Shown here: positions 1,176-28,410 of the stretch, in pieces | How positions within the stretch are numbered: the stretch's first letter is position 1 | How the letters are laid out: each line of letters begins with the position of its first letter | NCBI GenBank assembly: GCA_014729565.1 | Contig: WJJR01000319.1 | Location: 1 to 29,344, forward strand | Direction of reading: 5' to 3' | From: Candidatus Zixiibacteriota bacterium | GTDB lineage: Bacteria > Zixibacteria > MSB-5A5 > WJJR01 | DNA length: 29,344 nucleotides | The notes under the pieces: model-generated | Seen by the model: the letters and a program-made list of their open reading frames with translations, nothing else | Databases searched by the model: none | Told to the model about the DNA's origin: nothing | Made by a program: the position numbers and the translations under genes

Positions 1176-1379
1176 TGATGGTGATTGTACGGAGCACCGA
1201 ACGGGGTGCCCCACCCTAACCGATTCGCCGCCCAGGGAGACGATCGTTTAGGTGGGATTCCCATTTCGGGAAATACATGTGCCCCTGACGACAAGCACGT
1301 CGATCTCCGATTGAAAATAAGCTCGTGTGCCACTGGACCTTGGTCAGTGGCCCTCCAACCTGACACATTTGTCATTATC

Positions 1380-2972: not shown

Positions 2973-2975
2973 CGC

Positions 2976-3650: not shown

Positions 3651-3690
3651 TAAATACCACCTTTGAAACTACGTGCGTTTGCGCGGTCGA

Positions 3691-5391: not shown

Positions 5392-5461
5392 GATGACACA
5401 CCCGGGCATGCCCGGCACGCCGCCAAAAGACAGCGCGCCGAGCTGTGGGAAATCCGTGCTG

Positions 5462-6619: not shown

Positions 6620-6626
6620 AGTCGCC

Positions 6627-7436: not shown

Positions 7437-7437
7437 G

Positions 7438-7818
7438 TTACAACTCCTCCGGGATGATGTGACATTCCCAACAGTACGGCTCCACGCCCATATAGAGATG
7501 GCACCGGTCGCAGAACTTTTCTTTGCTGACGTGGCATCCCAGACAGGTATTGGTGAGGCTGCATTCACGGCGCCCGCCGTCGGGCGTCTCTTCGAATCGC
7601 TGCCCGTCCCGGATCACCTGGTCGCGCCACTCGTCGAGGAGATCCATGTGATGCGCCGCCATGTACGCTGAATCACGCACGCACGATTCCGCATCTTTGG
7701 GATACTCCACTTCCGGCGTGTATGACGCGCGGCCGCTGGACAGGTTGTACCAGAACGGTGCGCTCACCAGCGCGAGAAAGATCACCAGCCCAATGGTTAC
7801 CTTGCCGGCATCATGCAT
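7438..7818 (-). CDS. dsrJ: DsrJ, triheme cytochrome c
   Basis: N-terminal TM anchor, three CxxCH motifs (CLGCH, CDRCH, CWECH) and the YMAAHHM segment. GGAGGAGG RBS; overlaps the dsrK stop. Confidence 0.92.
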   Translation of the reverse strand: MHDAGKVTIGLVIFLALVSAPFWYNLSSGRASYTPEVEYPKDAESCVRDSAYMAAHHMDLLDEWRDQVIRDGQRFEETPDGGRRECSLTNTCLGCHVSKEKFCDRCHLYMGVEPYCWECHIIPEEL

Positions 7819-9469
7819 TGGCCGCCACCTCCTCCTGAGATCCGCCTGCCGGAGACTCATCCGCATGCGTTTTGCCCGACAGGTCCTGGCCGCGAAGGTC
7901 AACGTCGCGTTCCTTTTCACCCTTCATGATCAGCGCGTTACCGACCATTTCGTGAATGCCGCCGACTTCCACTTCCGGCACCCAGTACTCCATCAACGGC
8001 GACAGGGTCGCCTTATCGATGGCGCAGATGCACAACAGCAGATTGACATCATGTTCGTCGTGCACAAACTGCACGGCATTCGCACGCGGCATACCACCGC
8101 GCATGCGCATCTCCATGTTCTCGTCGGTGCCTAACCCGGCCCCACTGCCGCAGCAGAAGGTCTGCTCCCGGATCGTGTTCTCCGGCATTTCAAAGAAGTT
8201 GTTGCAGACAGACTTTATAATGTAACGCGGCTCTTCGAGCAGGCCCATCGCCCGCGCCGGATTGCAGGAATCGTGGAACGTCGTCCGCCAGTGATCGTTG
8301 CGGCTCGGGTCCAGGTTCAATTTGTTGTTGCGGATCAAGTCCGCAGTGAACTCGGTGATGTGGACCATCTTCGTCGACGACGCATGGTCGAACGTGGTAC
8401 CGGTAATCGGCGACCGCGGTGTCTCGAGGAAGTCAGCGGGACCGTTCAACGTGTTCATGTACTGATGGATGACACGCCACATGTGACCGCATTCCCCGCC
8501 CAGAATCCACTTCACGCCGAGCCGCTTCGCTTCGGCATACATCTTGGCATTGAGCCGTTTGATCATCTCGGTCGAGTGGAAGAGGCCGAAGTTGCCACCC
8601 TCCGACGCGTATGAACTCCACGTGTAATCGAGCCCGATCTCGTGGAAGAGCGCCAGATATCCGAGCAACGTGAAGTAGTGCGGCGACGCGAAATAATCGG
8701 CCGATGGCGCAATAAACAGAATCTCCGCACCCTTCTTGTTGATCGGCGCGTCGACGCGAATCCCGGTGATCTCTTCCAGTTCATCGACGGCGAATTCGAT
8801 GCTGTCCTTGAATCCGTGCGGCTGGATCCCAAGATGGTTTCCGGTCCGGAAACAGTTCGACAGCGGTGTGCAAATCCACTCGATGCTGAGGCCGACGAGA
8901 TTCATCAACTCGCGCGCCATCATCGTGATTTCCGCCGTGTCGATCCCGTACGGACAGAAGACCGAACAACGACGGCATTCCGTGCACTGGTAGAAGTAGT
9001 AAAACCACTCCTTCAGCACACCGACCGTCAGCTTGCGGCCACCGGCGATGCTCCCCAGAATCTTGCCTGCCGTGGTGAAATCGTTGCGATACACCGACCG
9101 CAGCAGTTCGGCGCGCAGCACTGGCATATTCTTCGGGTCGCCGGAACCGATGAAGTAGTGGCACTTGTCGGCACAGGCGCCGCACCGGACACAACAGTCC
9201 ATGAACACCTGGAACGAACGGTATTTCTTGAGACGCTCACGCATGCCGGTGAGAATGATCTGTTCCCACCCATCCGGCAGTTGCCAGTCATCGTCGGTCG
9301 GCTGCCACTTGCGCGGGTAGGGCAAATCCAGATATTCCAGTGTCTCCGGGACCGCCGCGTAGTTCCACGTACCCTTACGGAACTCAACAGTGGGATCCAT
9401 CCAGCCCTGGGGTGCGGGTTTGAACTCTACCTGCGCGAGTTCTTGCGGTTTTTTCAGCTTCTCAGACAT
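7811..9469 (-). CDS. dsrK: DsrK, HdrD-like Fe-S subunit
   Basis: Motifs CVRCGACADKC, CTECRRCSVFC, GGECGHMWR and FHDSC...CCGSGAG...CAID (DsrK-type CCG domain). Confidence 0.95.
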   Translation of the reverse strand: MSEKLKKPQELAQVEFKPAPQGWMDPTVEFRKGTWNYAAVPETLEYLDLPYPRKWQPTDDDWQLPDGWEQIILTGMRERLKKYRSFQVFMDCCVRCGACADKCHYFIGSGDPKNMPVLRAELLRSVYRNDFTTAGKILGSIAGGRKLTVGVLKEWFYYFYQCTECRRCSVFCPYGIDTAEITMMARELMNLVGLSIEWICTPLSNCFRTGNHLGIQPHGFKDSIEFAVDELEEITGIRVDAPINKKGAEILFIAPSADYFASPHYFTLLGYLALFHEIGLDYTWSSYASEGGNFGLFHSTEMIKRLNAKMYAEAKRLGVKWILGGECGHMWRVIHQYMNTLNGPADFLETPRSPITGTTFDHASSTKMVHITEFTADLIRNNKLNLDPSRNDHWRTTFHDSCNPARAMGLLEEPRYIIKSVCNNFFEMPENTIREQTFCCGSGAGLGTDENMEMRMRGGMPRANAVQFVHDEHDVNLLLCICAIDKATLSPLMEYWVPEVEVGGIHEMVGNALIMKGEKERDVDLRGQDLSGKTHADESPAGGSQEEVAANA

Positions 9470-9472
9470 CCG

Positions 9473-10956: not shown

Positions 10957-11123
10957 GGGCCTGCCCCATTTCGCAGTCACTCGCCGGCAGACGCCCCCCT
11001 GCCACTGCCGGCAAGCGATGTTGATGCCACGCGCGCCGCGTCAACTCGTATCCGAGGTCTTGCGACCACCAGTCGATCCGTAGTCAACACGAGTTGACGC
11101 GCGCGCAAACCGCAAACCGGGAA

Positions 11124-11441
11124 TTACACGCAGCCGGTCGGCTTGGCCAGGCCCGCAACTTTACAGGCGCCCTTCGCCGGTCCCGACGGGAACAGCTCGT
11201 ACACCTTCTTCAGCGGGAAACCGGTCTCTTTGCAGAGCTTCCGAATCATCGGCGCAATGCCAAACTTCAGATAGTATTCTCTCAGGTAGTTGACCAGTTT
11301 CCAGTGCTCCTCGGTCAATTCCTGGACGCCTTCGGTCGTGGCCAGAGCCTTGGCGACCTCTTCGTTCCATTCCGAGGGTTCGTCCATGAAGCCGTCTTCG
11401 TCGACTTCGATCTTGATGGTGCCGTGTTCGAATGTTGGCAT
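11124..11441 (-). CDS. dsrC: DsrC sulfur carrier protein
   Basis: C-terminus LFPSGPAKGACKVAGLAKPTGCV has both conserved Cys (C-x10-C), i.e. a true DsrC rather than TusE/RpsA. Confidence 0.97.
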   Translation of the reverse strand: MPTFEHGTIKIEVDEDGFMDEPSEWNEEVAKALATTEGVQELTEEHWKLVNYLREYYLKFGIAPMIRKLCKETGFPLKKVYELFPSGPAKGACKVAGLAKPTGCV

Positions 11442-11489
11442 CGCAATTCCTCGCTTCCGTTACAACTTCAACACCTACCAACAGTGACT

Positions 11490-13169: not shown

Positions 13170-13282
13170 AATGCATCATCCCAATTAGAGTGGCACGTTA
13201 TCGTGTTATTTGCTCCGATTCGGGATTACCGTTGGTCGTTCAGCAATCACCAACGATACCCATCCACCTCCCCAGCACGTCA

Positions 13283-14725
13283 TCATTCCCGCACGGCCAT
13301 CAACTCCGGACGAGCGGATGTCGCCTTCGAGCTGCGTCCTCCTGAATCTGGTCGATCGCGGTACCGCTGCGCCGCCTGAACCACCGACGGCGCCCAGGCG
13401 GGCGTCCCCAACGCATGCAGGTGCGAGTAGCACGCCAGCACGTTGTTGCGCACGAATCCGTCACGGCGCTTCCCCAATCCCACGCCGCGCGACACCGACA
13501 GGCACGTGTCGGCATCACCGAAATCACAATCCGGACTGGAATAGTGGAATTCGTGACCGCGAACCATCGTCCCGATCGCGAAGAACGGATTCTCACGATC
13601 AATCGACATCTGCGAATACCCATGCCCCGCCGGTTTGCGCGACATGGTCAGATCGATGTCGAACACACCCGACATCAAATACCGCCGGTTGTCATAGGTG
13701 ATCGACGCCGCCAGGTAAATCAGTCCGCCGCATTCCGCGTAGATCGGCATGCCGCCCTCCGCGGCGCCCCGAACCTCGTCCATCAGGGCCCGATTCCGGC
13801 GCAGACGGTCGGCATGCACTTCCGGAAAGCCGCCGCCGATGTAGAGAGCGTCGATCGGCGGCAGGCTCGTGTCGTGCAAAGCGTCAATACACACCAATTC
13901 GGCCCCGGCCAATTCCAGGGCTTCGAGGTTCTCCGGATAGTAAAACGTAAACACCGTGTCGTGAAAGTACCCGACCCGCACCGACGGCTGCGTTGCCACA
14001 GACAAGTGCGGCACACGCACGTCGAGCGCATTGGCATTCCGTGCCACGGATTGAAGCGCGGTGATGTCGAGACACGATGATCCCAACTCGGCCAATCGGT
14101 TGTCCATTCCCGACGCAGTTGTCTGTTCGGCAACCGGCACCAGTCCGAGATGCCGGCTGGGCAGCAAATCGTCGCCCGCGGCTTGCTTCGGCACCGTGCC
14201 AAGAACCGGCAGTCCGCAATACGACTCGATTGCCTCGCGAAGGACCCGCTCGTGCCGCCCACCGGCGACGCGGTTCAGGATCACCCCCGCAACGTCGAGC
14301 TTGGAATCAAACGACTGGACACCATTGATCAGCGCCGCCACCGTTCGCGTCACCTTCGTCGCATTGACAACCAACACAACCGGGGCTTGCAGAAGCGTTG
14401 CGAGTTCGGCGGTACTATGCGTACCCGCTGCATCCATACCGTCAAAGATTCCCCGGTTTCCCTCAATAACGGCGATGTCCGATTCGGAGGAGGCGCGCAC
14501 GAAGTTCACACGCACATCATCCGCCGCGGCGAGATAGGTGTCCAGGTTGCGGCACGGCCGGTCCGCCGCCCACGACAGCCACGCGGCATCGATATAGTCC
14601 GGCCCCTTCTTGAAAGCAGACACCGCTACATCTCGCTCTCTCAGTGCTCTAATGAGACTGAGACTAATGAGCGTTTTGCCGCTGTCGCCGGACAGGCCGG
14701 CGATGACCAACCGTGGTACGTTCAT
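13283..14725 (-). CDS. dsrN: DsrN, cobyrinate a,c-diamide synthase-like siroheme amidase
   Basis: Motifs AGLSGDSGKT, FKKGPDYID, IEGNRGIFDG, LYIGGGFPE, YAECGGLIYL and GHEFHYS. It follows dsrD. Confidence 0.9.
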   Translation of the reverse strand: MNVPRLVIAGLSGDSGKTLISLSLIRALRERDVAVSAFKKGPDYIDAAWLSWAADRPCRNLDTYLAAADDVRVNFVRASSESDIAVIEGNRGIFDGMDAAGTHSTAELATLLQAPVVLVVNATKVTRTVAALINGVQSFDSKLDVAGVILNRVAGGRHERVLREAIESYCGLPVLGTVPKQAAGDDLLPSRHLGLVPVAEQTTASGMDNRLAELGSSCLDITALQSVARNANALDVRVPHLSVATQPSVRVGYFHDTVFTFYYPENLEALELAGAELVCIDALHDTSLPPIDALYIGGGFPEVHADRLRRNRALMDEVRGAAEGGMPIYAECGGLIYLAASITYDNRRYLMSGVFDIDLTMSRKPAGHGYSQMSIDRENPFFAIGTMVRGHEFHYSSPDCDFGDADTCLSVSRGVGLGKRRDGFVRNNVLACYSHLHALGTPAWAPSVVQAAQRYRDRPDSGGRSSKATSARPELMAVRE

Positions 14726-14758
14726 AGTTCTCGACCGCGCCTTCAGTGTGACGGCCAA

Positions 14759-15004
14759 TTAATCGTTGGCCGCGCCTTCGCGATGCGGGAGTTCGAGGAA
14801 GCTGCCACCGAAATAGGTGTACACACACCGTCCGGAGTTGACCAACTGCTTGATCGCTTCCTTGCACAGCTTTTTGTCCACTTCATCGCCGTACATCTCG
14901 ATCATGGCCTTGGTCAGGTCCATCGGTTTGAGCTTCTTCATTCCTTGTGCGTCTTTCACCATGGTGTACATGGCGTCCGCCACTTCGTCTACTGTCTTTG
15001 CCAC
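14759..15004 (-). CDS. dsrD: DsrD, allosteric activator of DsrAB
   Basis: 81 aa directly after dsrB with GTG start and GAGGAGGT RBS. Motifs KKLKPMDL and LVNSGRCVYTYFGGSFLEL. Confidence 0.88.
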   Translation of the reverse strand: MAKTVDEVADAMYTMVKDAQGMKKLKPMDLTKAMIEMYGDEVDKKLCKEAIKQLVNSGRCVYTYFGGSFLELPHREGAAND

Positions 15005-15014
15005 ATTAACCTCC

Positions 15015-16100
15015 TCAGAAGGTTAAATGGGTCGAGCGTTTGAATGTCAGTCCGGCATGCTTGAAGTCGTCGATGTGCTCTTTCTGGAACTCGATATTGG
15101 CCATCTTGAAGAACCGCGGCCAGCCGATCCGTTCGATCCATTCACCCATGCGCTCGTACTTCTTCGCATTGGCGGCCCACAACTCGACCAAATTACGCAC
15201 GGCGCTCGTCACTTCCGGCCAGCGCGGCGGATTGTTCGGCAAAAACGGAATCGCCAGTTTCGAAAACATCGGTTCGTGACGCGCGTTCGACACCTTGCCG
15301 CCGACCCAGATCGACACACCGTCGTTGAGCGGGTTGTTGAGCGGCATCGCCGGACACACGGTGTAGCAGTTCGCGCAGAACATGCAGCGGTCTTCATCGA
15401 CCTCGACGGTCTCCAGACCCTCGACCATGGTCGGCTTAATCGCCGCGGTCGGACACGATGCGACGACATTCGGAATCTCGCATACCTTTTTCAATTTGGT
15501 GTGGTCGACTTTCGGCGGACGGCGGTGGACACCCAAAATCGCAATGTCGGAGCAATGCACCGCGCCGCACATATTCAGACAGCACGCCAGCGCAATGCGC
15601 AGCTTGCCCGGCAACTTCTTCTCTTCGAAATACTCCATCAAATCGTCCATGACGCATTTCACGATGCCGGAGGCATCGGTCGCCGCCGAGTGACAGTGCA
15701 CCCAACCCTGCGTGTGGACGATCGAAGAGATCGCATTGTCAATACCGCCGACCGGATGGCCCATCTCACGCAGATCGCTGATCAACGGATCGATGTTCTC
15801 GGACTTGGTCAGCAGGAACTCGACATTGTGACGGCTGGTGAAGCGCAGATACCCGTCACAGTACTTGTCCGCCAGATCGCAATACATGCGGATCTTGTCG
15901 ACGCTGAGCAGACGTCCGGAGGACGCGCGCACCGTAAACAACTTGGCGTCCGATTCGGACACGTGGACCATGACGCCCGGCTTCAACGTCTCGTGGTACT
16001 TCCACTTGCCGTAATTCTCTTTGATGATGGGCGGCAAAAACCGCTCATGATGTGGTGGACCGTAGTCTGTCCGCCGCTCTTGTGTTGCCACTTCAGCCAT
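15015..16100 (-). CDS. dsrB: Dissimilatory sulfite reductase beta subunit
   Basis: Motifs [44 protein letters not shown] and [13 protein letters not shown]. Confidence 0.97.
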
Positions 16101-16139
16101 GATATATCCCTCGAATCGTAAGTGGTCTCCGGTTAACGA

Positions 16140-17351
16140 TTAGCTTTCGTCGTCTTCCTCCTCATCGTCTTCTTCGTAATACTCTTCGTAGAAGACATAA
16201 GGATTCTCACGCGGATGTGCGACCATCTCGGGAATCGGTTCGACCTCGATCGCTTCGAGGAAGTTGCCGAGACCGACGCGTTGGATGAACTCTCCAATTC
16301 GCTCACGATTCTTGCCTTCCTCACACCAGACATCCCAGATGCGTTCGACCACATCTTTGATCTCCTGGTAGGGAGGCTCCATCTTGATGAACGGGATCAG
16401 CACCGAGGACAGCATGGCGCCCTCGACGATTGGCGCTTTCGATCCAATCAGAATCGTCGCACCGCGATCCTTACCCGGCCGCAGGGCCTTCGGCATCACG
16501 TTGATGCAGTGCATGCAGCGGCGGCAGTAGCTGTTGTCAATCTCCAGCTTGGTGCCGTCCCAGGCCATGCACTTGGCCGGGCAGTTGTCCACCACGTCTT
16601 TCTGAATGTCCATGCCGTTGTCGGCATATTCCTTCACGGCTGCCTCGTCCATCTGGATATCGTCGCGCCAGGTTCCGATGATCGACAGGTCGGAACGCGC
16701 GATGGAGGCCACGCAATCATTCGGACATCCACTGAATTTGAATTTGAACTTGTACGGGAACGCCGGACGGTGCAGCTCGTCCTGGTACGCCATGGTAAAG
16801 TCATAGCATGCGCCCATCGTATCGTAGCAGGCCCACTCGCAGCGCGCCTGGCCGCAGCAGCAGCTCGGCGTGCGCACGTCGGATCCCGACCCACCGATGT
16901 CGAAGTCGATTTTCTGCAATTCGTCGAACACCGGCTCCAAATGGTCGGTCGATGTCCCCAGCAGAATGATGTCACCGGTGGAACCGTGCATGTTCGTCAG
17001 ACCGGAGCCGTGCTTCTCCCAAATATCGCAGATGCTGCGCAGGGCATCGGTCGTGTAAAACCAGCCGGCCGGCTGGTTGATGCGCATCGTGTGGAAGTGG
17101 GACACATTCGGGAACTCCTCCGAGAGGTCGGAGTAGCGGCCGATCACACCGCCGCCGTATCCCATCACACCCACGATACCGCCGTGTTTCCAATAACCGA
17201 TCTTCTCGCGATACGATTTTTCAAGCTGGCCGAGCAGATCCACCGCCATCGGATTTCGCTTGGCGGCCATCTTGATTTCCTTGACGAAACTCGGCCAGGG
17301 CCCCTTTTCCAGTTCGTCTAACAGTGGGGTTTCTTGGACATTGTCTGCCAT
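16140..17351 (-). CDS. dsrA: Dissimilatory sulfite reductase alpha subunit
   Basis: Motifs [22 protein letters not shown]-like [20 protein letters not shown], siroheme site CCGQARC...KFSGCPNDC, and RERIGE. GGAGG RBS. Confidence 0.97.
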
Positions 17352-17550
17352 GTTGCCTCCTTCCGGATTGCCTATGGAAGCCGGCGAGTATGAAACCCGA
17401 TTGCCGTGACGATGGTCTGCCTGTCAGGTCGCGTCAGTGTCGCGGGTCGTACAAGCATCGCAGGGCTCCTCATGCGCTCGGGTTCAATCCTCCGTTTCGT
17501 TGGGCCCTGGCCCATGCATGAGCACGGGCCAGGACTCATCACCATTGTTG

Positions 17551-19443
17551 TTAGGCCATCGCTGGCGCTGACTCCGTGATGGAGATGATGTCGCGTTTCA
17601 TCATCGACCATTCGTTGGCCTTCGGATCGTATTTGCAGTTCGCAAACACCTTCCAGTCGTCCTTCATTTCCGGCTTGTCGGCGCGGAAATAGTAGCCCGG
17701 CCACCGCGTCTCTTCGCGGAACATGATGGTCCGCATGTGCGCTTCGGCCTGCCACATCCGATGGACGTTCTCCCAGCAACGCAGCAGCTCGTGATGGTTT
17801 TCCGCTCCGAGCTTCTCGGCGTCCTCTCTCAAGAACTCAAGCAGTTCGAGACCCTTCTCCAGCATCTTCTCGCTGGTGGTGAAGTTGGTGGAGACGCCGC
17901 CGGCGTACTCGTCCATGATCTTCTGCAGACGGAACATGAACTGCTTCGGCCGGATGTAGTTCGGGTTGACGTCCGGATCGGTGCTGGCGTTCTGGTTCTG
18001 CTCGAACAAATCGAGCGGACGCAGGATGCGTTCCTTCAGTTCTTCGATCTTGGCATCCGGGACATCGCCACCGTCGCCGTTATCAGCGACAAACGAGATC
18101 GCGCCCTTCGCGGCGATGCGGCCTTCCGCATGCGACCCGGAGGAGAACTTGTGGCTCGACGCACCGGAGGCGTCGCCGGCCGCAAACAGACCCTGCACCG
18201 TCGTCATGTTCGGATAGCCCCAGAAGTACTCCTTCGGCGCCAGATCCTCGGGACCGCTCACCCAGGCACCCGATGCACCGGAGTGCGAACCGATGAAGTA
18301 CGGTTCACAAGCCGCGATTTCCGACGGCTTCTCTTCCGGGAAGGTGTTCGTCGACGCCCACAACAGCGCCTGCGAGATCGTCATGTCGAGAAAGTCTTCC
18401 CATGCTTCCGATTCGAGCTCTTTGAGTTTCTTCTTCCGCTCTTTCTCGTCGGGCACTTCTTCGGAAATGCGCTGCAGGGCCTCTTCCGTACGCATGTAGA
18501 TCGGGCCCTTCCCCTCCATGACGTCGAGCATCATCAGCCAGTTGCGCAAGTTGGCCGGGACCGGCTTGACGAGACCGTAGGGTTTCCACTTATCCAGCTC
18601 GTCGCGCCGTGTCTGCATGTAGGCCTCGCCGAGCGCGTTGGTTGCCCGCGACTTGAACAGCAGGAACCAGGCGCCGACCGGGCCATACGCATCCTTGAAG
18701 CGGACGGGGATGAACCGCACTTCCTGGCAGGTCATCTCCGCACCGGCCTTGATCGTGAAGTACGCACTGGCGCCGGAGTTAAACGGCGGATACCACGAAC
18801 GACCCAGTCCTTCACCGGTCGACCGCGGCTTGAACACGTGCACCGCACCACCCATCATCGCGAGCACGGCCTTGGCCTTGAAGACGTAGAACTTGTTCTC
18901 ACGAACACTGAAGCCGACCGCGCCAACACAGCGGCCCTGGTCATCGATCAGGGGCTCGGTGATGAACACGCGCTCGTAGATGTTGTCCACGCCCAACGCG
19001 TTCTTGGCGGCTTCGGCGACGATGATCTTGTACGATTCACCGTTGATCATAAGCTGCCAGCGGCCCTCGTGTACGTACTTTCCTTCTTTGTCTTTCCAAA
19101 TCGGGAGTCCCCACTTCTCGAACAGGTGCACTGACGAGTCGACGTGACGGGCGATGTTCGCCACCAGGTCTTCGCGGGTGATGCCCATGAGGTCGTTGCG
19201 GACGTAGTCGATGTAGTCCTTCACGGTGTTGGCGCCGGAGTTGATGTCAACGTACTGGTTGATCGCCGACAGACCCATCGCGACAGCACCGGACCGGTCC
19301 ATCGCCGCCTTGTCCACCAGCGTGACTTTCAGATTGTTCTTCTTCGCCCAATGCGCGGCCTCGACCGCCGCGCCGCAGGCGGCCATACCACCACCGCAAA
19401 TCAATACATCGGTGGTGACTTCTACGGTTTCCCATTTCGCCAT
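17551..19443 (-). CDS. aprA: Adenylylsulfate (APS) reductase alpha subunit
   Basis: Motifs GGGMAACG, RSGAVAMGLSAIN, RFKDAYGPVGAW, SHKFSSGSHAEGR and EETRWPGYYFR. Confidence 0.97.
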   Translation of the reverse strand: MAKWETVEVTTDVLICGGGMAACGAAVEAAHWAKKNNLKVTLVDKAAMDRSGAVAMGLSAINQYVDINSGANTVKDYIDYVRNDLMGITREDLVANIARHVDSSVHLFEKWGLPIWKDKEGKYVHEGRWQLMINGESYKIIVAEAAKNALGVDNIYERVFITEPLIDDQGRCVGAVGFSVRENKFYVFKAKAVLAMMGGAVHVFKPRSTGEGLGRSWYPPFNSGASAYFTIKAGAEMTCQEVRFIPVRFKDAYGPVGAWFLLFKSRATNALGEAYMQTRRDELDKWKPYGLVKPVPANLRNWLMMLDVMEGKGPIYMRTEEALQRISEEVPDEKERKKKLKELESEAWEDFLDMTISQALLWASTNTFPEEKPSEIAACEPYFIGSHSGASGAWVSGPEDLAPKEYFWGYPNMTTVQGLFAAGDASGASSHKFSSGSHAEGRIAAKGAISFVADNGDGGDVPDAKIEELKERILRPLDLFEQNQNASTDPDVNPNYIRPKQFMFRLQKIMDEYAGGVSTNFTTSEKMLEKGLELLEFLREDAEKLGAENHHELLRCWENVHRMWQAEAHMRTIMFREETRWPGYYFRADKPEMKDDWKVFANCKYDPKANEWSMMKRDIISITESAPAMA

Positions 19444-19464
19444 GGCTGTACCGTCCTTTCGCCC

Positions 19465-19902
19465 TTAGAGGCTCGGCAGTTCCGCGCACTTGGTTGATTC
19501 GGGTTCAGTGAACAACAATGGACTCTTTAGATCGTCCGAGCCGGAGGCAAAGCCACCGTCCGGAACCGCGCTTCCCTCCGGAGTCGTACGGATCGGGAAT
19601 TTAAAGCGCTTCAAGGTGCCGTTGCGGAACTTGATCGTCCACAGAATGCTGTCCGACGAGCGCATCGGCGTCACCATGCCGTTCAACGGCATGAAGTCCG
19701 CATAACCGCGCAGTTCCATCGCCTGCACCGGGCAAATCTTGACGCAGCACATGCACTCCCAGCACATCGCGGGGTCTTGGTTGTAGGCTTTCATCTTCTC
19801 CTTGTCCAAGACCATCAGATCGTTGGGACAGATGTACTGGCAGGCGGTCTTGTCGAGCGCCTTGCACCCGTCACATTTGTCTGGGATTACATAACTTGGC
19901 AT
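19465..19902 (-). CDS. aprB: APS reductase beta subunit
   Basis: Motifs MPSYV..DKCDGC...CQYICP, CWECMCCVKICP and WTIKFRNGTLKRFKFPIRTTPEG. GGAGGT RBS. Confidence 0.96.
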   Translation of the reverse strand: MPSYVIPDKCDGCKALDKTACQYICPNDLMVLDKEKMKAYNQDPAMCWECMCCVKICPVQAMELRGYADFMPLNGMVTPMRSSDSILWTIKFRNGTLKRFKFPIRTTPEGSAVPDGGFASGSDDLKSPLLFTEPESTKCAELPSL

Positions 19903-19965
19903 TGGTACCTCCCAATTGGCCGAAAACCCTGTGACTGTTATATCTTTATGCGTTAACCTTCCCAC

Positions 19966-21189
19966 TTACCGTTTCGCATCGCCCGTGGCGTGCGCGTGCA
20001 TCTTCACTTCCACTCTCTCGCCATCTTTCAACCCCGCGTAGTACTCGCGCAGAATCGCGAGCACTTCCGGACGGCTGAATTCGGCCGGGACATCCCCGCC
20101 TTCGGAGAGCGCCTTGCGCAGAGCCGTACCCGAGAGGAACAGACGATCCTCTTTGCCGTGCGGACAGGTCTTCATCGAACACATGCCGCCGCACTTGTAG
20201 CACCAGAACGTCCAGTCAATCGGCAGCATCTTGCACTTCAGGGACCCTTCCGGCAACTGGTGGAAGATCTCCTGCGCGTCGAACGGCCCGTAGTAGTCGC
20301 CCACACCGGCATGGTCACGGCCGATGATCATGTGCGTGCAACCGAAGTTCTGACGGAACACCGCGTGCAGCAGTCCTTCGCGCGGGCCGGCGTAGCGCAT
20401 GTCGAGCGGATAACCGCCCTGCACCACTCGGCTCTTGTCGAAGTAGTTCTCGACCAGTGTGTCAATGCAGCGGACACGCACGTCGGCAGGAATGTCGCCG
20501 GGCTTCAACTGGCCGACCAACTGGTGAATGTACACACCGTCAGACACCTCAATCGCAATCTTCGCAAGGTACTCGTGCGACCGGTGCATTGGGTTGCGCA
20601 ACTGCATCGCCGCAATTGTCTTCCAGCCCTTCTCCTCGAAGAGCTTGCGGCTCTCGGCCGGACGCTGGTAGATGGCGGCAAAGTCTTTGGGGAAGTACGA
20701 TTCCGACAGCACCTTCACCGGACCGCCCAGGTTCCACGCCTTCTGCTCCATGACCTTCTGCACGCCGGGATGCTCGGTGTCGGCCGTCGTGAAGACGTGC
20801 TTGCATTCGAAGTCCTTGTCGATTTGGTACGACTCGTTGACCGTCATGGTCCCCATGACTTCATTGGTCTCACCGGACACGAGGCAGATCTCCGTTCCCG
20901 GGGCAATCTTCTCATCGTGAGATAAGGTGATCGGAATCGGCCAAAACGTGCCGTTGGCCATCTTCATGTCCTGGCAGACGCCTTTCCAGTCGTCCTGCCC
21001 CATGAAGCCTTCGAGTGGCGTAAACCCCCCGATCCCCAAAAAGATCAAGTCCCCGGTTTCCCGTGAGGACATGACCACTTTCGGGAGGGTCTCCGCCCGT
21101 TTCAATTCCTCCTCGCGCTCCTTACCATCCAGGAGGAGGATCCGCAGCGTGTCACTGCCGTGGGGAGATATCAACTCCGATTTTTGCAT
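19966..21189 (-). CDS. sat: Sulfate adenylyltransferase (ATP sulfurylase)
   Basis: Motifs [25 protein letters not shown] and [13 protein letters not shown]. An alternative GTG start lies at 21195; RBS GAGGAGAGGT. Confidence 0.96.
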
Positions 21190-21313
21190 GATCACAACCT
21201 CTCCTCATTAGGGGTTTGCTGTTCGTCCCATGCCGTCAGCCGATCGCAGCAGATTCAGCCTCCTTTTAATCCATAATTTGGTACGCTGAACCCCACTCAT
21301 TTGATCGGCTTTA

Positions 21314-23324: not shown

Positions 23325-23846
23325 ATGGCTCACTCGAGCAGTCGCGCAAAAGAAAAATTTCACAAGATCGCCGCAACTGAACGTCGCCGGGCGACACCGG
23401 AACCCGAAGATGACTGGGATCCGATCATGGCGATTGGCGTCGCTGCATCGATGACCGGCCTCTCGGTTTCGGCGCTACGGAAGTACGAATCCGAGGGTCT
23501 GCTTACCTATCACCGCACGCCGACCGGCCGCCGCCTTCTGTGCCGCGCCGATATTCGGCGCATCAAAACGATCCAGCATCTCATCAATGAAGAGGGACTC
23601 AACATTGAGGGAATTCGGCGACTGCTGGCCTTGCTCCCCTGCTGGGATCTGACCCACTGCTCCCAGGACACCCGCCGCGAGTGCCTCGCCACCAAACACA
23701 GTCATCAGCCCTGCTGGATGGTGCGCAAAACGAAATGCGCCAAGGCGGGGTTCAACTGCAATGAATGCGATGTCTATCGCTACGGCACATACTGCATCGG
23801 AACAATGAAATCACTCGTTCACGGCACGGATGACGACACGCCGTGA
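23325..23846 (+). CDS. MerR-family HTH regulator with C-terminal 8-Cys two-CW domain
   Basis: HTH segment IGVAASMTGLSVSALRKYESEGLL...RTPTGRR...GLNIEGI. Tail CWDLTHC...C...PCW...C...CNEC...C. RBS GGAGGTGG. Confidence 0.82.
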   Translation: MAHSSSRAKEKFHKIAATERRRATPEPEDDWDPIMAIGVAASMTGLSVSALRKYESEGLLTYHRTPTGRRLLCRADIRRIKTIQHLINEEGLNIEGIRRLLALLPCWDLTHCSQDTRRECLATKHSHQPCWMVRKTKCAKAGFNCNECDVYRYGTYCIGTMKSLVHGTDDDTP

Positions 23847-23869
23847 TCGGAGGAAGAGCGAGGCGCCAG

Positions 23870-24421
23870 ATGAATGAGACGATCCGCATTGGCGACACCA
23901 CGGTCCGCTTAATCAAAGGGGACATCACCGACCAGGAGATCGAGGCCTTCGTATACTACGCCCGCCATAATCTGGCGCTCGGCTCGGGATTTGGCACGGC
24001 CATCACAGTCCGCGGCGGCCCCGACATTCAGAAGGAACTCGACACTCTTGGACCGATCGAAACCACCGAAGTCGTCGTATCCAACGCTGGTGAGCTGAAA
24101 GCGGACAAGATCATTCATGCGGTTGGGCCGCGATTCCAGGAAGTCGATCTTCCGGCCAAATTGGCAACCACCATCCGCAATTGTCTCTCCGCCGCCCGAG
24201 AGCATGACATCTCGTCTCTCGCCTTCCCGCCTATGGGCGTCGGCTTCTATGGCGTGCCCCTCGATTTGTGCGCACGGATCATGCTGGCGACATTTCAGGA
24301 AGTCTTGAGACAAAGCCCCGGTATGCGGGAGATTGTCATCTGCGCCAACGATTCCCGTGAATACGAACCGTTCCGGCAACTGCTGCAGAACTTCAGCACG
24401 ACAAAGGAGTATGTCCAATGA
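23870..24421 (+). CDS. Macro domain (Appr-1-p / ADP-ribose-binding fold) protein with atypical active-site loop
   Basis: Motifs LIKGDIT, AITVRGG, IIHAVGP and LAFPPMGVGFYG. The stop overlaps the next start (ATGA at 24418-24421). Confidence 0.85.
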   Translation: MNETIRIGDTTVRLIKGDITDQEIEAFVYYARHNLALGSGFGTAITVRGGPDIQKELDTLGPIETTEVVVSNAGELKADKIIHAVGPRFQEVDLPAKLATTIRNCLSAAREHDISSLAFPPMGVGFYGVPLDLCARIMLATFQEVLRQSPGMREIVICANDSREYEPFRQLLQNFSTTKEYVQ

Positions 24422-25116
24422 GCGAGTCACTCCATTTCGCCGAACACACCCTCCAGGAAATCGCCCTGGTCTTCATGGCGCTTGTGTACACGACACGGGT
24501 GCTGTGGCTGATCCGGTTTAATGCCTCGAAGGAACGGCAGCCGGAAACCGGCTTACCCGACACATCGGCGCGCAAAGGCATTCTCTACTCATGGTTGAAT
24601 GTGGGCATGCCGTGGTCGATGGAGAGTTCGCGAACGAAGCCGTTTATGTACGGCACCTTTGTCATCTTCCATCTTGGCGTCGCCGCTGCCATCGGACTGT
24701 CCTTCATTATACCGTATGCTCCCCAGGTCCTGGAGACGCCGCTGGTGGGTCCGGTACTGCAGATCATCATTGGCCTGGCCTGTCTGGTTGGTGTTCTGCG
24801 CATCATTCGCCGTGTCGGCGACAAACACATGCGCGCGATCAGCAGCCCCGATGACTACTTCTCGATTCTTCTGCTCACCGTCTGGTTGTTCTTCGGCACA
24901 CTGGCAGTACCCAATAGCACCGCCAATGGCGAAGGGATTCTGCTGACGTTTTTCGTCTTAACGGCGTTCTTCCTGATCTACGTCCCGTTCAGCAAGATCT
25001 CCCATTACCTCTACTATCCCTTCTCACGCTACTACGTGGGCAAGACACTGGGATACAGAGGGTCCTATCCGTTACGCCGCGGACCCGCGCCGCGACGCAC
25101 TGCCACCACCACCTGA
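24418..25116 (+). CDS. TmcC/NarI/HdrE-like membrane cytochrome b subunit
   Basis: About five hydrophobic segments with FH (H85), SSPDDYF and YVPFSKISH (H196), typical NarI-family landmarks. The MPWSMES segment resembles TmcC. Confidence 0.75.
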   Translation: MSESLHFAEHTLQEIALVFMALVYTTRVLWLIRFNASKERQPETGLPDTSARKGILYSWLNVGMPWSMESSRTKPFMYGTFVIFHLGVAAAIGLSFIIPYAPQVLETPLVGPVLQIIIGLACLVGVLRIIRRVGDKHMRAISSPDDYFSILLLTVWLFFGTLAVPNSTANGEGILLTFFVLTAFFLIYVPFSKISHYLYYPFSRYYVGKTLGYRGSYPLRRGPAPRRTATTT

Positions 25117-25135
25117 GACACTGAGGGAGATAGCG

Positions 25136-26890
25136 ATGAGTCCAGCGACCAATACAGAGCGCTCGCACAAAGCCCAGAAAGTTCTCGAACGATTCGACAA
25201 GAAGCTGAGCCGCCAGGTGGTGAGTTCGCTGGTGTCGTGTGTGCACTGCGGCATGTGCACCGATAGCTGCCACTATGTCCTGGCCAACCCCGACGATCCC
25301 AGCTACGCTCCGGCCTACAAAGCGGATCGCATTCGGCGCATCTTCAAACGCCATTTCGATTGGACCGGACGCGTCGCGCCGTGGTGGGTGCACGCCAGGA
25401 GCGTCTACACCGATGATGATCTGGAGGAACTGAAGGACATCGTCTTCGGCAAGTGCACCAACTGCCGACGCTGCACCATCAACTGCCCGATGGGTGTCGA
25501 CTTTGCCACCTTCAATCGCATGGCGCGCGGCCTGCTGGTATCAGTCGGAGTGATGCCTGAGGGCGTCTCCGTCGTCAGCAAAGACCAGTGGGAAATCGGC
25601 AATCAGATGGGGGTATTGAAAGAGGACTACATCGAGACACTGGAATGGATGGCCGAGGAACTGCAGATGGAACTGAACGATCCGGAGGCGACCATTCCGA
25701 TCGACGTCCCGGATTGCGACATTGTCTACTCCATCAATCCGCGCGAAATCAAATACGACCCACGCACCATTGCCGACGCGGCCAAAATCTTCTACGCCGC
25801 CGGCGAACACTGGACGATGCCCAGCGAAGGCTGGGACATGACCAATTTCGGCCTGTTCTCCGGTGACGACGATCTCGGCGGCGCGGTCGCGCGCCGTCTC
25901 TACGAAAAGGTCAGCGACTTGCGCGGTAAGACGCTGGTGATTTCCGAATGCGGCCACGGGTACCGCTCCACACGCTGCGAGGGTCCCAACTGGGCCAAGC
26001 AGGACATCAACGATTTCGCGATGGAAAGCTCAGTCAGTACGATGTTGCGCTACATTAGAGACGGACGCATCACCGTCGACAAGACCCGCAACACCACTCC
26101 GGTAACCTTTCATGACTCCTGCAACAACGCGCGCAGTTGCGGATTTTTCGAGGAACCCCGCGAACTACTGAACCTGGTCTGTAGCGATTTCCGTGAGATG
26201 TATCCCAACCGTGCCGAGAACTACTGTTGCACCGGCGGCGGCGGGGCGATGTCGATGTCCGAATACACACCGCGCCGTTTGAAATCGGCGAAGATTAAGG
26301 CGGAACAACTCAAAGCCACCGGCGCCAAGATCGTTGTCACCTCCTGCCACAATTGTGTTGACGGACTCAGCGACTTGATTCGCCACTACAACCTGGACAT
26401 GAAAGTGACCCAACTCGTCAATCTCGTTGCCGATGCGTTAGTGATTGAACCCAAGGCTGAAGCACCCGAGGCGGCAGTTCCTGTTGCCACGGCAGACGGC
26501 GAGCTGGCGGGATACACGATTCTTGTTGCCGACGATGAACCCGATCTCGTCACCTTCGTCTCCACGCTGCTGGAAGACCACGGCGCGACCGTCATCGGCG
26601 CATCAAATGGCGAAGAAGCGTTGTCGCTGGCCCGTGCGCACAAGCCCGATCTGATTACCCTCGACATCACCATGCCGGGCATGAGCGGCGACGAAGTCTT
26701 CGTAGCGCTGCGTAAGGATCCCGACTTAAGGGGCATCAAGGCCTGCATCATCACCGGACGGCCCGAATTGCGACGGCTCATCTATGAACGTCCGGTGACA
26801 CCGCCGGAGGGATATATCGATAAGCCGGTCGATGAAGAATCGATTCTGACCAACGTGAAGAAGATACTCGAAGTGCATCACGAGAGTTAA
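25136..26890 (+). CDS. TmcB/DsrK/HdrD-like (Fe-S)-binding protein fused to a C-terminal response-regulator receiver domain
   Basis: Motifs CVHCGMCTDSC, CTNCRRCTINC, ECGH and FHDSC...YCCTGGGG...SCHNC. After an Ala/Pro/Glu linker comes ILVADDEPD...LITLDITMPG...IITG...IDKP. Confidence 0.88.
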   Translation: MSPATNTERSHKAQKVLERFDKKLSRQVVSSLVSCVHCGMCTDSCHYVLANPDDPSYAPAYKADRIRRIFKRHFDWTGRVAPWWVHARSVYTDDDLEELKDIVFGKCTNCRRCTINCPMGVDFATFNRMARGLLVSVGVMPEGVSVVSKDQWEIGNQMGVLKEDYIETLEWMAEELQMELNDPEATIPIDVPDCDIVYSINPREIKYDPRTIADAAKIFYAAGEHWTMPSEGWDMTNFGLFSGDDDLGGAVARRLYEKVSDLRGKTLVISECGHGYRSTRCEGPNWAKQDINDFAMESSVSTMLRYIRDGRITVDKTRNTTPVTFHDSCNNARSCGFFEEPRELLNLVCSDFREMYPNRAENYCCTGGGGAMSMSEYTPRRLKSAKIKAEQLKATGAKIVVTSCHNCVDGLSDLIRHYNLDMKVTQLVNLVADALVIEPKAEAPEAAVPVATADGELAGYTILVADDEPDLVTFVSTLLEDHGATVIGASNGEEALSLARAHKPDLITLDITMPGMSGDEVFVALRKDPDLRGIKACIITGRPELRRLIYERPVTPPEGYIDKPVDEESILTNVKKILEVHHES

Positions 26891-26892
26891 CG

Positions 26893-28323
26893 ATGTGTAG
26901 CGGTGCGGCGCCCGACGGCGCATACAAGCAGTACTTCGATTCGATGCCGTGTTTCTTGACGGTGCAGGACCGTAATCTGCGCGTCATCGACGCCAATGCG
27001 CGGTTCGAAGAGAAGTTCGGCGATTACCGCGGTCGCTACTGCTACCAAGTCTACAAACAGCGGCCGGAAAAGTGTGAAGTCTGCCCGGTCGAGCGGACGT
27101 TTCGGGATGGCGAGTCACATCGCACCGAGGAACTGGTCAAGACCTTGCAGGGCGATGACGTCTGGGTGATTGTCTACACAACCCCGATTCGCAATGAGCA
27201 CGGCGACATCACCTCGGTGATGGAGATGTCGACCGATATCACCGAGATCAAACTGCTCCACAAACATTTGCGCGAAAGCCAGGAGAAGTACCGACTCCTG
27301 TTCGAAGAAGTCCCCTGTTACATCTCGATTCAGGATCGCGACCTGAACATCGTCGCGGCTAACCGCCTGCACCGCGAGGCCTTTGGCACGGCGTACGGAC
27401 AAAAGTGCTACGAGGTGTACAAACACCGGGCCAAGGCTTGCTCACCCTGTCCGGTGCACGAAACCTTCGCGGACGGTCAGTCACGGGCTCACGAAGAGGT
27501 GGTCACAGCCCAGGACGGTTCGCGCATGAACGTGTTGGTCTACACCGCACCACTGCGCAATGTCGATGGTGAGGTGGAGCACGTGATTGAAATGAGCACC
27601 GACATCACACAGATCCGCGAACTGCAAGACAAGCTCTCGTCGGTCGGCATGCTGATCAGCACCATCTCTCACGGCATCAAAGGCTTACTCAATGGACTGG
27701 ATGGGGGAATCTATCTCCTCAACTCGGGACTGGAGAAGAACGACCGCGCACGGATCGACAAGGGCTGGGACATGACACTTCGCAATGTCCGGCGCATCCG
27801 AACGCTGGTCATGGACATCCTGTACTACGCCAAGGATCGTGAACCCGAATACGAGCCGATCTCTGCGCGACAGATTCTGGAGGAGGTGTGTGGCTCACTA
27901 CAAGAACGTGCACAAAAATTGAACATCTCCTTGAGCGTCGATGCGAAGGACACCGGAGAATCCCATGCCGATCCGCAGATGATTCGCTCACTACTGGTCA
28001 ATCTGATCGAAAACGCGTTTGATGCCTGCCGGATTGACGGTGCGAAACCGGACCATACGGTGCGTGTTTCACTTGATGAGATCGATGGAGCAGTGCGTTT
28101 CACAATTGCCGACAATGGCATCGGTATGGATCAGGAAACACGTGAAAAGGCATTCAGTCTGTTCTTCTCGTCGAAGGGAGCAGGTGGAACCGGACTCGGC
28201 CTGTTTATCGCAAATAAGATTGCGCAAGCACACGGCGGCAGCATTACGCTGGAATCGGTAGAAGACGAAGGAACTACATTTGTTGTAGAACTTCCCCGCC
28301 AACAGCACCCTCCAATTGACTGA
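26893..28323 (+). CDS. Cytoplasmic PAS-PAS sensor histidine kinase
   Basis: Two PAS repeats, H-box ISH260GIKG, N-box NLIENAFDA, G1 DNGIGM, F-box FSLFFSSK and G2 GTGLGL. No TM segment and no receiver domain. Confidence 0.9.
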   Translation: MCSGAAPDGAYKQYFDSMPCFLTVQDRNLRVIDANARFEEKFGDYRGRYCYQVYKQRPEKCEVCPVERTFRDGESHRTEELVKTLQGDDVWVIVYTTPIRNEHGDITSVMEMSTDITEIKLLHKHLRESQEKYRLLFEEVPCYISIQDRDLNIVAANRLHREAFGTAYGQKCYEVYKHRAKACSPCPVHETFADGQSRAHEEVVTAQDGSRMNVLVYTAPLRNVDGEVEHVIEMSTDITQIRELQDKLSSVGMLISTISHGIKGLLNGLDGGIYLLNSGLEKNDRARIDKGWDMTLRNVRRIRTLVMDILYYAKDREPEYEPISARQILEEVCGSLQERAQKLNISLSVDAKDTGESHADPQMIRSLLVNLIENAFDACRIDGAKPDHTVRVSLDEIDGAVRFTIADNGIGMDQETREKAFSLFFSSKGAGGTGLGLFIANKIAQAHGGSITLESVEDEGTTFVVELPRQQHPPID

Positions 28324-28380: not shown

Positions 28381-28387
28381 CCAGCGG

Positions 28388-28410
28388 AAAAGCGTTCTGC
28401 GCTTTTTCTT
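28388..28410 (+). terminator. Small A/T-flanked hairpin, possible terminator
   Basis: aaaagcg-ttctg-cgctttt followed by tctt. Confidence 0.35.

Follow-up and report, generated by a model that had tools for sequence, protein, structure and literature searches.

A CheY-like receiver fused to a TmcB/HmcF-like iron-sulfur subunit in a gene cassette that co-occurs with dsrA

Results

We analyzed a 29,344-nucleotide contig from a Candidatus Zixiibacteriota bacterium (WJJR01000319.1; hereafter, the window) and found that one of its plus-strand genes encodes a CCG-type iron-sulfur protein fused at its C terminus to a CheY-like receiver domain. We class this 584-amino acid (aa) protein, called the fusion below, as a response regulator that has a subunit of a respiratory-type redox complex as its effector. 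The best-supported reading of its sequence and context is that the histidine kinase encoded next to it would target the redox enzyme itself, because the residues of the receiver do not vary, the kinase gene adjoins the fusion in every locus examined, one genome (G264) has lost receiver and kinase together, and no receiver encoded in the cassette, in the window or in the relatives examined, carries a DNA-binding output. Our analysis followed up an initial annotation, which had described a DsrK/HdrD-like enzyme joined to an intact receiver and had proposed that phosphorylation directly controls a respiratory disulfide reductase. The coordinates of all features are collected in Table 1.

Domain architecture and conservation of the fusion

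The reading frame is open, and Pfam places Fer4_8 at residues 33-121, CCG at 323-407 (43 bits; cut-off 20.6), and Response_reg at 462-574 (64 bits; cut-off 30.2), the architecture for which the initial annotation had recommended a search. Pfam finds no domain beyond the receiver, in agreement with the earlier statement that the protein has no DNA-binding output domain. Public records label such proteins either "response regulator" or "Fe-S oxidoreductase/CheY-like."

Conservation was scored in 120 homologs that are 75-82% identical to the fusion. The eight cysteines of the ferredoxin-like part are invariant in this set and nearly so across the wide family; they form the two CX2CX2CX3C motifs of the single-CCG family, which correspond to two [4Fe-4S] clusters. 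C272 is likewise invariant, and the SECGH motif that contains it aligns with GECGH of the window DsrK. The cysteine of this T/GECGH motif is common to DsrK, HmcF, and TmcB and has been proposed to be catalytic, for disulfide chemistry (PMC10861901).

The CCG domain has the spacing C329-x34-C364C365-x38-C404-x2-C407, and its five cysteines are nearly invariant in the wider family. It follows the five-cysteine pattern CXnCCGXnCX2C with a variant threonine in place of glycine that is invariant in the fused clade: the triplet reads CCT in the fusion, CCS in a 54%-identical relative, and CCG in receiver-less relatives. The initial annotation was right that five cysteines are kept and that the triplet reads CCT; the set is corrected here to C329, C364, C365, C404, and C407, to which C349, kept in only 72% of close homologs, does not belong. 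C281 and C335 are also invariant in the 120 homologs.

The receiver has the full complement of CheY-like features, namely the acidic DD pocket (D466/D467), the acceptor aspartate (D510), the conserved threonine (T540) and lysine (K563), and a (beta-alpha)5 fold. These residues lie where they had been placed from the sequence and, together with G559 and P564, are invariant in the 120 homologs, with Y or F at position 560 throughout. The Ala/Pro/Glu linker reported before the receiver was also confirmed. It is 20-49 aa long across the homologs and is the least conserved stretch, with 34% column identity compared with 83-91% in the catalytic part and 67% in the receiver. Since the catalytic part is best conserved and the receiver residues are invariant, both halves are under selection.

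AlphaFold2 modeled both domains with a mean predicted local distance difference test score (pLDDT) of 94. The linker scored 65-77, compared with 93-99 for most other blocks, and the model fits two independently placed domains on a flexible tether. The modeled receiver consists of five strand-helix repeats (pLDDT >90), and the nearest solved folds are DivK and RR468.

One alternative is that the receiver is a pseudo-receiver, that is, a structural or dimerization domain that works independently of phosphorylation. Phosphotransfer is itself a prediction, and a docking prediction that paired residues 455-584 (receiver) with residues 1-445 (catalytic part) scored 0.00, which is below the mark, although a score of this kind speaks neither for nor against binding. 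However, all 120 homologs retain the acidic pocket, T540, K563-P564, and Y/F560, a kinase with an invariant H260 is always adjacent, and receiver and kinase disappeared together in G264. We therefore regard a phosphorylation-independent role as very unlikely.

Distribution and single origin of the fusion

Among protein clusters from NCBI, JGI, ENA, and Logan (90% clustering), the best 120 all carry the receiver, and more than 120 clusters hold the fusion. We also scanned 285 species genomes, which comprise every genome of the phylum, and found an ortholog in 59. Most of these are 72-83% identical to the fusion, and three are 58-59% identical. A scan of GTDB species genomes yielded 80 further loci, at 72-79% identity and in a single frame, whose titles include Gemmatimonadota, Acidobacteriota, Planctomycetota, Ignavibacteria, Myxococcota, Calditrichaeota, and Deltaproteobacteria, among others. 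Five of these genomes were checked: they are 4.6-9.3 Mb in size and lie outside the 285-genome set, and in four of the five DsrA is 71-75% identical to that of the window.

A tree built from the catalytic parts groups all the fused proteins in a single clade (support 100/100), from which we conclude that the fusion arose once. Clustering at 50% returned a single further full-length fused representative (P0121), which is 54% identical and has its own cytochrome b and a single-PAS kinase. Compared with genomes titled Gemmatimonadota, Acidobacteriota, Myxococcota, and Phycisphaerae, the fusion (72-79%) and DsrA (71-75%) are similarly conserved. Because cross-phylum identity is alike for the two proteins and branches in the fused clade are very short, these comparisons suggest that the cassette spread laterally along with dsr genes.

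We considered whether the fusion could be an assembly, frameshift, or stop-loss artifact. On one 2.4-Mb contig (L118), the receiver is called as a separate gene, as this explanation would have it. However, the receiver frame of L118 is open back across the stop, the stop lies right after a run of six C, and one base more or less joins the frames. The split (L118 5940-6010) is thus probably a homopolymer error of the long-read assembly, and we rejected L118 as a true fission of the receiver on the basis of the open frame across this stop. No other locus shows an apparent fission; the G192 frame is broken, with Ns. With a single frame recurring in >120 clusters from four sources, 59 phylum genomes, and 80 further loci, the number of independent assemblies already refutes the artifact, which we consider next to inconceivable, and the earlier treatment of the fusion as genuine is borne out. 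A look-up for 24418-28323 of the window returned no public sequencing runs, and support for the junction comes from the many independent assemblies. True free receivers, 59-65% identical to the fused one, also exist, either beside a kinase and a second DsrMK-like unit (L116, L121) or as an orphan (L119); they do not make the fusion an artifact.

The catalytic part is nearer to TmcB and HmcF than to DsrK

The nearest NCBIfam profiles for the fusion were HmcF (NF045711; 329.1 bits; cut-off 750) and TmcB (NF045724; 309.9 bits; cut-off 735), followed by DsrK (NF045796; 235.9 bits; cut-off 400). None of the cut-offs was reached, and by these scores the fusion is orthologous to neither HmcF nor TmcB. 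In the tree, the fused clade is nested in a larger one (support 98/92) whose other members include a near-TmcB protein (723.6 bits, compared with the cut-off of 735), an HmcF-like protein, and DsrC-linked forms. This larger clade is separate from that of the window DsrK, which is 29% identical to the catalytic part of the fusion, and the two other CCG paralogs of the genome. Tree position and profile score both bring the catalytic part closer to TmcB/HmcF than to DsrK, and we rejected filing the fusion as a DsrK on the same grounds. The earlier designation as a DsrK/HdrD-like enzyme thus holds as membership in the single-CCG, HdrD-like superfamily and does not hold as orthology to DsrK or HdrD.

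Two receiver-less relatives point to a possible substrate. P0129 (L008 2019-4081), which is 44% identical, carries a DsrC-like domain at the same C-terminal point where the fusion carries its receiver, with a NarI-like gene before it and a DsrC-family gene after it. The fused DsrC-like domain lacks the arm cysteines, and the DsrC-family gene that follows has one cysteine. P0130 (L018 7031-9353; 41% identical) belongs to an operon of dsrC, a membrane protein/cytochrome b, and the CCG protein, in which DsrC has the canonical two-cysteine arm. It is mainly because P0129 and P0130 are joined or adjacent to DsrC that we propose a DsrC-type substrate for the fusion. Other relatives are fused at the N terminus to a cytochrome b, which supports the pairing of a CCG protein and a cytochrome b as subunits.

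Receiver-less proteins that are 40-45% identical occur in many DsrA-negative phylum genomes, and the receiver-less relatives look like small DsrC-reducing modules outside sulfite respiration. Around the near-TmcB relative (P0165), the 15.8 kb that were read contain an Hmc-type operon but neither a kinase nor a receiver; the link of receivers to Hmc/Tmc loci is therefore frequent, not universal. The nearest solved structure of the catalytic part is that of EtfD from Mycobacterium smegmatis (PDB 9ojn; Foldseek E 3e-17 over 457 aligned columns; sequence E 3e-11; 19% identity).

A membrane subunit and a kinase accompany the fusion

The fusion belongs to a tightly packed plus-strand run that encodes, in order, a MerR-family regulator, a Macro-domain protein, a small membrane protein, the fusion, and a PAS-PAS kinase. 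The order cytochrome b, fusion, kinase is kept in 12 of 12 loci, the locus of the 54%-identical relative included. Across cassette loci, the fusion is the best-conserved protein (75-81% identity); the corresponding values are 64-72% for the cytochrome b, 59-75% for the kinase, and 47-57% for the Macro protein.

The membrane protein, encoded directly upstream of the fusion in all 12 loci, is a probable quinol-interacting anchor and a candidate NarI-type partner. Its best profile matches, to HmcE and TmcC, are both below the cut-off, and that to Pfam Nitrate_red_gam is weak. It has five hydrophobic stretches, and H85 and H196 are the only invariant histidines in 13 orthologs; the protein may hold one heme or use other ligands. 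No cytochrome c gene was found in the cassette, either in the window or in the relatives.

The kinase gene follows the fusion in 12 of 12 loci. In the window, the fusion stop codon at 26888-26890 and the kinase ATG at 26893 are separated by 2 nucleotides, exactly as first noted. The kinase has an H-box with H260 as well as N, G1, F, and G2 boxes. H260 and four cysteines (C142, C172, C183, and C186) in the PAS domain that adjoins the kinase core are invariant in 12 orthologs, among them the distant single-PAS kinase, and this four-cysteine set suggests a metal- or Fe-S-sensing site. In the window kinase, a four-cysteine pattern occurs in each PAS domain (26893-27630). Most relatives encode an extra free receiver of 126-127 aa after the kinase; the window has no such gene.

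The same genome contains a split counterpart

An Hmc-like operon on contig C30 of the same genome, which has a cytochrome c gene, is followed by genes for a PAS kinase and two single-domain receivers. This kinase is the closest genome paralog of the window kinase (40% identity; 261 bits, with the next at 111) and keeps the same H-box and three of the four PAS cysteines. The two receivers are the closest genome paralogs of the fused receiver (42% and 37% identity; 90 and 84 bits, with the next at 60), and they lack an output domain. Thus, paralogous signaling sets each accompany a CCG-type membrane complex, with the receiver free on C30 and fused in the window. Because the same parts are split in one locus and fused in the other, the comparison suggests that such receivers act on CCG subunits. 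A second Hmc-like locus is present on contig C418.

The best receiver profile for the fused domain was the DVU0259-family model (NF045717), which gave 68.5 bits for the protein and 72.3 bits in the genome scan, below its cut-off of 160; the fused receiver is the fourth-best match of this model in the genome. In Desulfococcus multivorans, tmc and hmc genes adjoin response-regulator and kinase genes, an arrangement that was likened to that of D. vulgaris (PMC5109826). Regulation of hmc is affected by Rrf1 (DVU_0530), itself a receiver protein (bioRxiv 10.64898/2026.06.30.735679).

Natural variants and association with dsrA

G264 encodes an 80%-identical, 451-aa version that ends right after the catalytic domain, and it has neither receiver nor kinase; from this gene content, the two were lost together. 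In some other genomes (Thermoguttaceae, where titled), the kinase is accompanied by two receivers, one of them a free receiver with 62-65% identity to the fused domain, and there is no catalytic gene of the fused type. These signaling genes face a unit of MerR, DsrM-like, and DsrK-like genes.

The cassette as a whole is also variable. The genus mate G284, which is 99% complete and whose DsrA is 98% identical to that of the window, lacks the window segment 23834-28456. At this site (L030, G284:C6), a 74%-identical MerR gene lies directly before the DsrM-like gene and the flanks are 87-90% identical, while the genes for Macro, cytochrome b, fusion, and kinase are absent. L007 has two MerR paralogs, one heading each unit. 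Because the G284 MerR abuts the DsrM-like gene and L007 has both paralogs, the cassette may have been deleted or inserted by recombination between merR copies. As G284 lacks the cassette and has a near-identical DsrA, the cassette is dispensable for the core pathway, and it is therefore an accessory module rather than the main terminal reductase.

DsrA is present in 103 of the 285 phylum genomes and in 54 of the 59 with an ortholog of the fusion, while an ortholog occurs in 5 of the 182 DsrA-negative genomes; these are plain counts, in which related genomes are not independent. Four of the five DsrA-negative carriers, G177, G103, G250, and G034, are 72-89% complete; the fifth, G264, is 94% complete. 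The fused type is absent from all nine families that lack DsrA, several of which instead carry the receiver-less type at 40-45% identity. The fusion gene lies within ~25 kb of dsrA on several contigs and megabases away in some complete genomes.

These variants bear on a different explanation of the cassette. The cytochrome b and the Fe-S/CCG module could report the redox state of the quinone pool or of a thiol and thereby set how readily the tethered receiver accepts phosphate from the kinase, or inhibit it, so that the fusion, as a phosphate sink or feedback inhibitor, would tune signaling to the free receiver and would not be the output. Most relatives do have a second, free receiver right after the kinase, the cassette otherwise consists of a MerR regulator, a kinase, and a Macro protein with no substrate gene, and the Thermoguttaceae-titled genomes keep receivers and kinase without the catalytic gene. 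FixT offers a precedent: it is a single-domain receiver that binds Fe-S and exerts feedback on FixL (PMC7078487). However, the free receiver is also without an output domain, so no downstream output is visible, and the window keeps fusion and kinase though it has no free receiver. Moreover, the catalytic half is the most conserved and keeps all catalytic-type residues, the SECGH cysteine included, and the sister clades are enzyme-like, DsrC-linked modules. We consider a sensing or feedback role unlikely, though a possibility to be taken seriously.

Neighboring genes and the window setting

A MerR gene also lies upstream of the cassette in L005 and L007. In the window, the start of the Macro gene overlaps the MerR stop, and its own stop overlaps the cytochrome b start. 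The Macro gene is upstream of the cytochrome b gene in 11 of 12 loci, and the twelfth locus ends at a contig edge; it is syntenic in every locus that reaches that far, the receiver-less G264 variant included. The Macro gene is translationally coupled to the cytochrome b gene. A scan of the region for promoters and terminators gave no more sites than shuffled sequences did, and only the hairpin after the kinase gene is well placed.

The second DsrM-like gene, which is cut by the contig end, is part of a recurrent neighbor. A unit of MerR, DsrM-like, and DsrK-like genes follows or faces the signaling genes in L007, L116, L118, and L121. The second DsrM-like/DsrK-like unit spans L007 14207-17280, L116 2650-5726, and L118 9775-12326, and it is headed by MerR in L007, L116, and L121. 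In L116/L117 and L121/L122, it lies beside signaling genes though the fused enzyme is absent. Because the unit adjoins the signaling genes even there, the kinase and receivers may also serve the second DsrM-like/DsrK-like unit.

Close relatives of the window genome carry the title Zixibacteria in public records. The minus strand of the window carries a sat-apr-dsr gene run, in which dsrAB comes directly after aprBA (17551-21195). Its RsbRD_N-domain gene is probably dsrT, whose described position is next to dsrM (PMC10504309). The window dsrC is the only match to PF04358 (DsrC family) in the genome, and its product is a candidate substrate of the fusion enzyme. No qmo genes were found within the window; in the relative L005, HdrA/Qmo-like genes lie ~8 kb from the cassette.

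Table 1. Location of the features discussed in the text (window coordinates unless a contig is named)
Feature	Location	Strand	Basis or remark
Whole window		 	One 29.3-kb contig; source genome 3.15 Mb, 89% complete
sat, aprBA, dsrAB, dsrN, DsrL-type flavoprotein, dsrC, RsbRD_N-domain gene, dsrMK, dsrO, dsrP, CoA-disulfide-reductase/rhodanese fusion, sirohaem genes	1380-21195	-	
True DsrK of the dsrMKJOP run	7811..9469	-	NCBIfam DsrK 734 bits, cut-off 400
dsrC, both C-terminal cysteines present	11124..11441	-	Ends with two-Cys arm
MerR-family regulator, heads the co-directional run	23325..23846	+	Pfam MerR_1 3e-15
Macro-domain protein	23843..24421	+	Pfam Macro 2e-24
HmcE/TmcC/NarI-like membrane subunit, 232 aa	24418..25116	+	NCBIfam HmcE 50.7 bits, TmcC 47.9 bits
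TmcB/HmcF-like CCG iron-sulfur protein with C-terminal receiver, 584 aa (the fusion)	25136..26890	+	Open reading frame, Pfam, NCBIfam, tree
Ferredoxin-like part, 4-Cys motifs C35, C38, C41, C45 and C107, C110, C113, C117	25232..25501	+	Fer4_8
SECGH motif with C272, counterpart of the T/GECGH Cys of DsrK, HmcF, and TmcB	25940..25954	+	
Single CCG domain, C329, C364, C365 (read CCT), C404, C407	26102..26356	+	Pfam CCG
Flexible Ala/Pro/Glu-rich tether, ~residues 441-461	26456..26518	+	
CheY-like receiver	26519..26857	+	Phospho-acceptor D510 at 26663-26665
PAS-PAS histidine kinase, soluble, H260	26893..28323	+	Pfam PAS_4 x2 and HATPase_c
Terminator-like hairpin and T-run, 3' of kinase gene	28384..28410	+	Consensus match only
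Second DsrM-like cytochrome b, 5' part, cut by contig end	28468..29343	+	Pfam Nitrate_red_gam 1e-12; NCBIfam DsrM weak
Sigma-54 activator, HmcF-like CCG protein, TmcC-like, HmcB-like, 663-aa NrfD::cytochrome c3 fusion, PAS kinase, two single-domain receivers	Contig C30, same genome (L032 ~1350-9190)		

Discussion

We lean, with some reserve, toward the view that the cassette encodes an accessory reductase that is linked to quinol, probably acts on DsrC, and is switched through phosphorylation of its catalytic subunit. In the model that we infer for phosphotransfer, its effect on the enzyme, the electron donor, and the substrate, the fusion would serve a small redox complex in the membrane as its cytoplasmic catalytic subunit, of the TmcB/HmcF type. 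Electrons drawn from the quinone pool by the HmcE/TmcC-like membrane protein would reach the single CCG (noncubane cluster) site and the SECGH cysteine by way of two [4Fe-4S] clusters, and would there reduce a protein-bound sulfur substrate, most likely DsrC trisulfide or disulfide. The soluble and presumably co-transcribed kinase would sense a redox or sulfur signal, and its invariant four-cysteine PAS domain probably binds a metal or an Fe-S cluster. The kinase would autophosphorylate on H260 and pass the phosphoryl group to D510. The altered receiver would then affect the activity of the enzyme, the access of substrate to the CCG site, or the association of the enzyme with the anchor, and not transcription. 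The whole cassette would be an optional accessory of the sat-apr-dsr gene set. As for the original proposal of direct phosphorylation control, the enzyme as target agrees with the best-supported reading, while support for the name "respiratory disulfide reductase" comes from motifs and from the DsrC linkage of the sister clades.

Several observations weigh against this model. The membrane partner has two invariant histidines compared with the four heme ligands of DsrM (PMC10861901), which makes quinol coupling uncertain. A free receiver follows the kinase in most relatives, so that the main target of the kinase may be a receiver other than the fused one. There is no dsrC gene inside the cassette, the triplet of the CCG site reads CCT in place of CCG, and the closest solved structure is that of EtfD, a CCG protein with a function other than disulfide reduction. 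The AlphaFold2 model has a predicted template modeling score of 0.76 despite its pLDDT of 94, in keeping with domains that are placed independently of each other. Finally, a genus mate with near-identical dsr genes lacks the cassette.

The lack of dsrC in the cassette and the CCT triplet also speak for a regulated enzyme with a partner other than DsrC, such as a Qmo-like/adenylylsulfate reductase route, the second DsrMK-like unit, or another thiol or disulfide. The CCG proteins EtfD and LutA have other substrates, the second DsrM-like/DsrK-like unit is often adjacent, and L005 has its HdrA/Qmo-like genes nearby. However, the two nearest receiver-less relatives are fused or linked to DsrC-family proteins, the fusion gene co-occurs with dsrA, and the xECGH cysteine that has been proposed for disulfide chemistry is retained (PMC10861901). 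We find a non-DsrC partner improbable.

A more specific version of the DsrC model, of which we are quite doubtful, has the tethered receiver work as a phospho-switchable gate on the face where DsrC docks to a second, accessory DsrC-trisulfide reductase, at the position that a DsrC-like domain occupies in the nearest relative. On this view, the free receivers that classical sulfate reducers encode by hmc and tmc operons (Rrf1, the DVU0259 family) would bind HmcF or TmcB directly. If there were such a gate, a redox-sensing kinase could throttle the last electron-consuming step of sulfite respiration in seconds, with gene expression unchanged.

Two-component systems are mostly known as switches of transcription, motility, and second messengers, and we know of no case of a receiver built into a subunit of a respiratory membrane complex. 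Our literature search found no paper on a receiver-fused CCG subunit, none pairing "HdrD" with "receiver domain," and none naming DVU0258-0260. Matches for TmcB together with "response regulator" concern gene neighborhoods only, and two recent surveys of Dsr gene diversity make no mention of the fusion.

If the enzyme is controlled by phosphorylation, regulation of electron flow in the dissimilatory sulfur cycle would be post-translational, and this would reach many uncultured lineages, with titles such as Zixibacteria, Acidobacteriota, Gemmatimonadota, and Planctomycetota, that are now regarded as reducers of sulfate or sulfite. The fusion could also account for the output-less receivers Rrf1 and DVU0259 beside the Desulfovibrio hmc and tmc operons, where rrf1 follows hmcF directly. 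The cassette is compact, with four genes, a soluble kinase, and a defined phospho-acceptor, and assays for phosphotransfer and for menadiol:DsrC-trisulfide oxidoreduction already exist.

Comparison with known systems

Among characterized proteins, TmcB and HmcF of the Desulfovibrio Tmc and Hmc complexes (anchors TmcC and HmcE) share with the fusion two four-cysteine motifs, one CCG domain, the xECGH cysteine, and a small partner encoded next door, which is putatively NarI-like in the cassette. Identity is ~33-35%, and the fusion scores far below both equivalog cut-offs. The Tmc and Hmc operons have a periplasmic multiheme cytochrome c (TmcA/HmcA), whereas the fusion cassette has no gene for cytochrome c, HmcB, or HmcC. 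The fusion further differs in its CCT triplet, in the covalently fused receiver, and in the Macro gene that is always present. EtfD, which acts between electron transfer flavoprotein and menaquinone, is a protein of 1042 aa with no receiver, compared with 584 aa and a receiver in the fusion.

DsrMKJOP is a menadiol:DsrC-trisulfide oxidoreductase (PMC10861901). Its DsrM and DsrK resemble the fusion system in pairing a cytochrome b, which is putative in the cassette, with a CCG protein that has the same cofactor motifs, in the dsr setting, and in the DsrC-linked sister clades. The fusion retains the CCG motif's final cysteine, while the window DsrK has Asp there (its motif ends C-A-I-D, as had been noted and as the alignment confirms), a described trait of many DsrK proteins (PMC10861901). 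The anchor of the fusion is smaller than DsrM, with two rather than four invariant histidines, and there is no JOP module. HdrD and HdrE of methanogens also pair an Fe-S/CCG subunit that has the complete five-cysteine CCG motif with a cytochrome b, but HdrD has two CCG motifs (PMC10861901) and the fusion has one. As the setting is the bacterial sulfur cycle, CoM-S-S-CoB is implausible as a substrate of the fusion.

Response regulators with an enzyme or adaptor output include CheB, PleD, and RpfG, as well as CheV, which has a C-terminal receiver. Like these proteins, the fusion joins a canonical receiver to an effector that does not bind DNA, with a cognate kinase alongside; it differs in having as its effector a membrane redox complex subunit that bears clusters, and in the C-terminal position of its receiver. 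FixT of Caulobacter likewise ties a receiver to Fe-S redox chemistry within a two-component system (PMC7078487). In FixT, however, the cluster is inside the receiver protein, which acts as a kinase inhibitor, whereas the clusters of the fusion would lie in a separate, 440-aa enzyme-type domain with a membrane partner.

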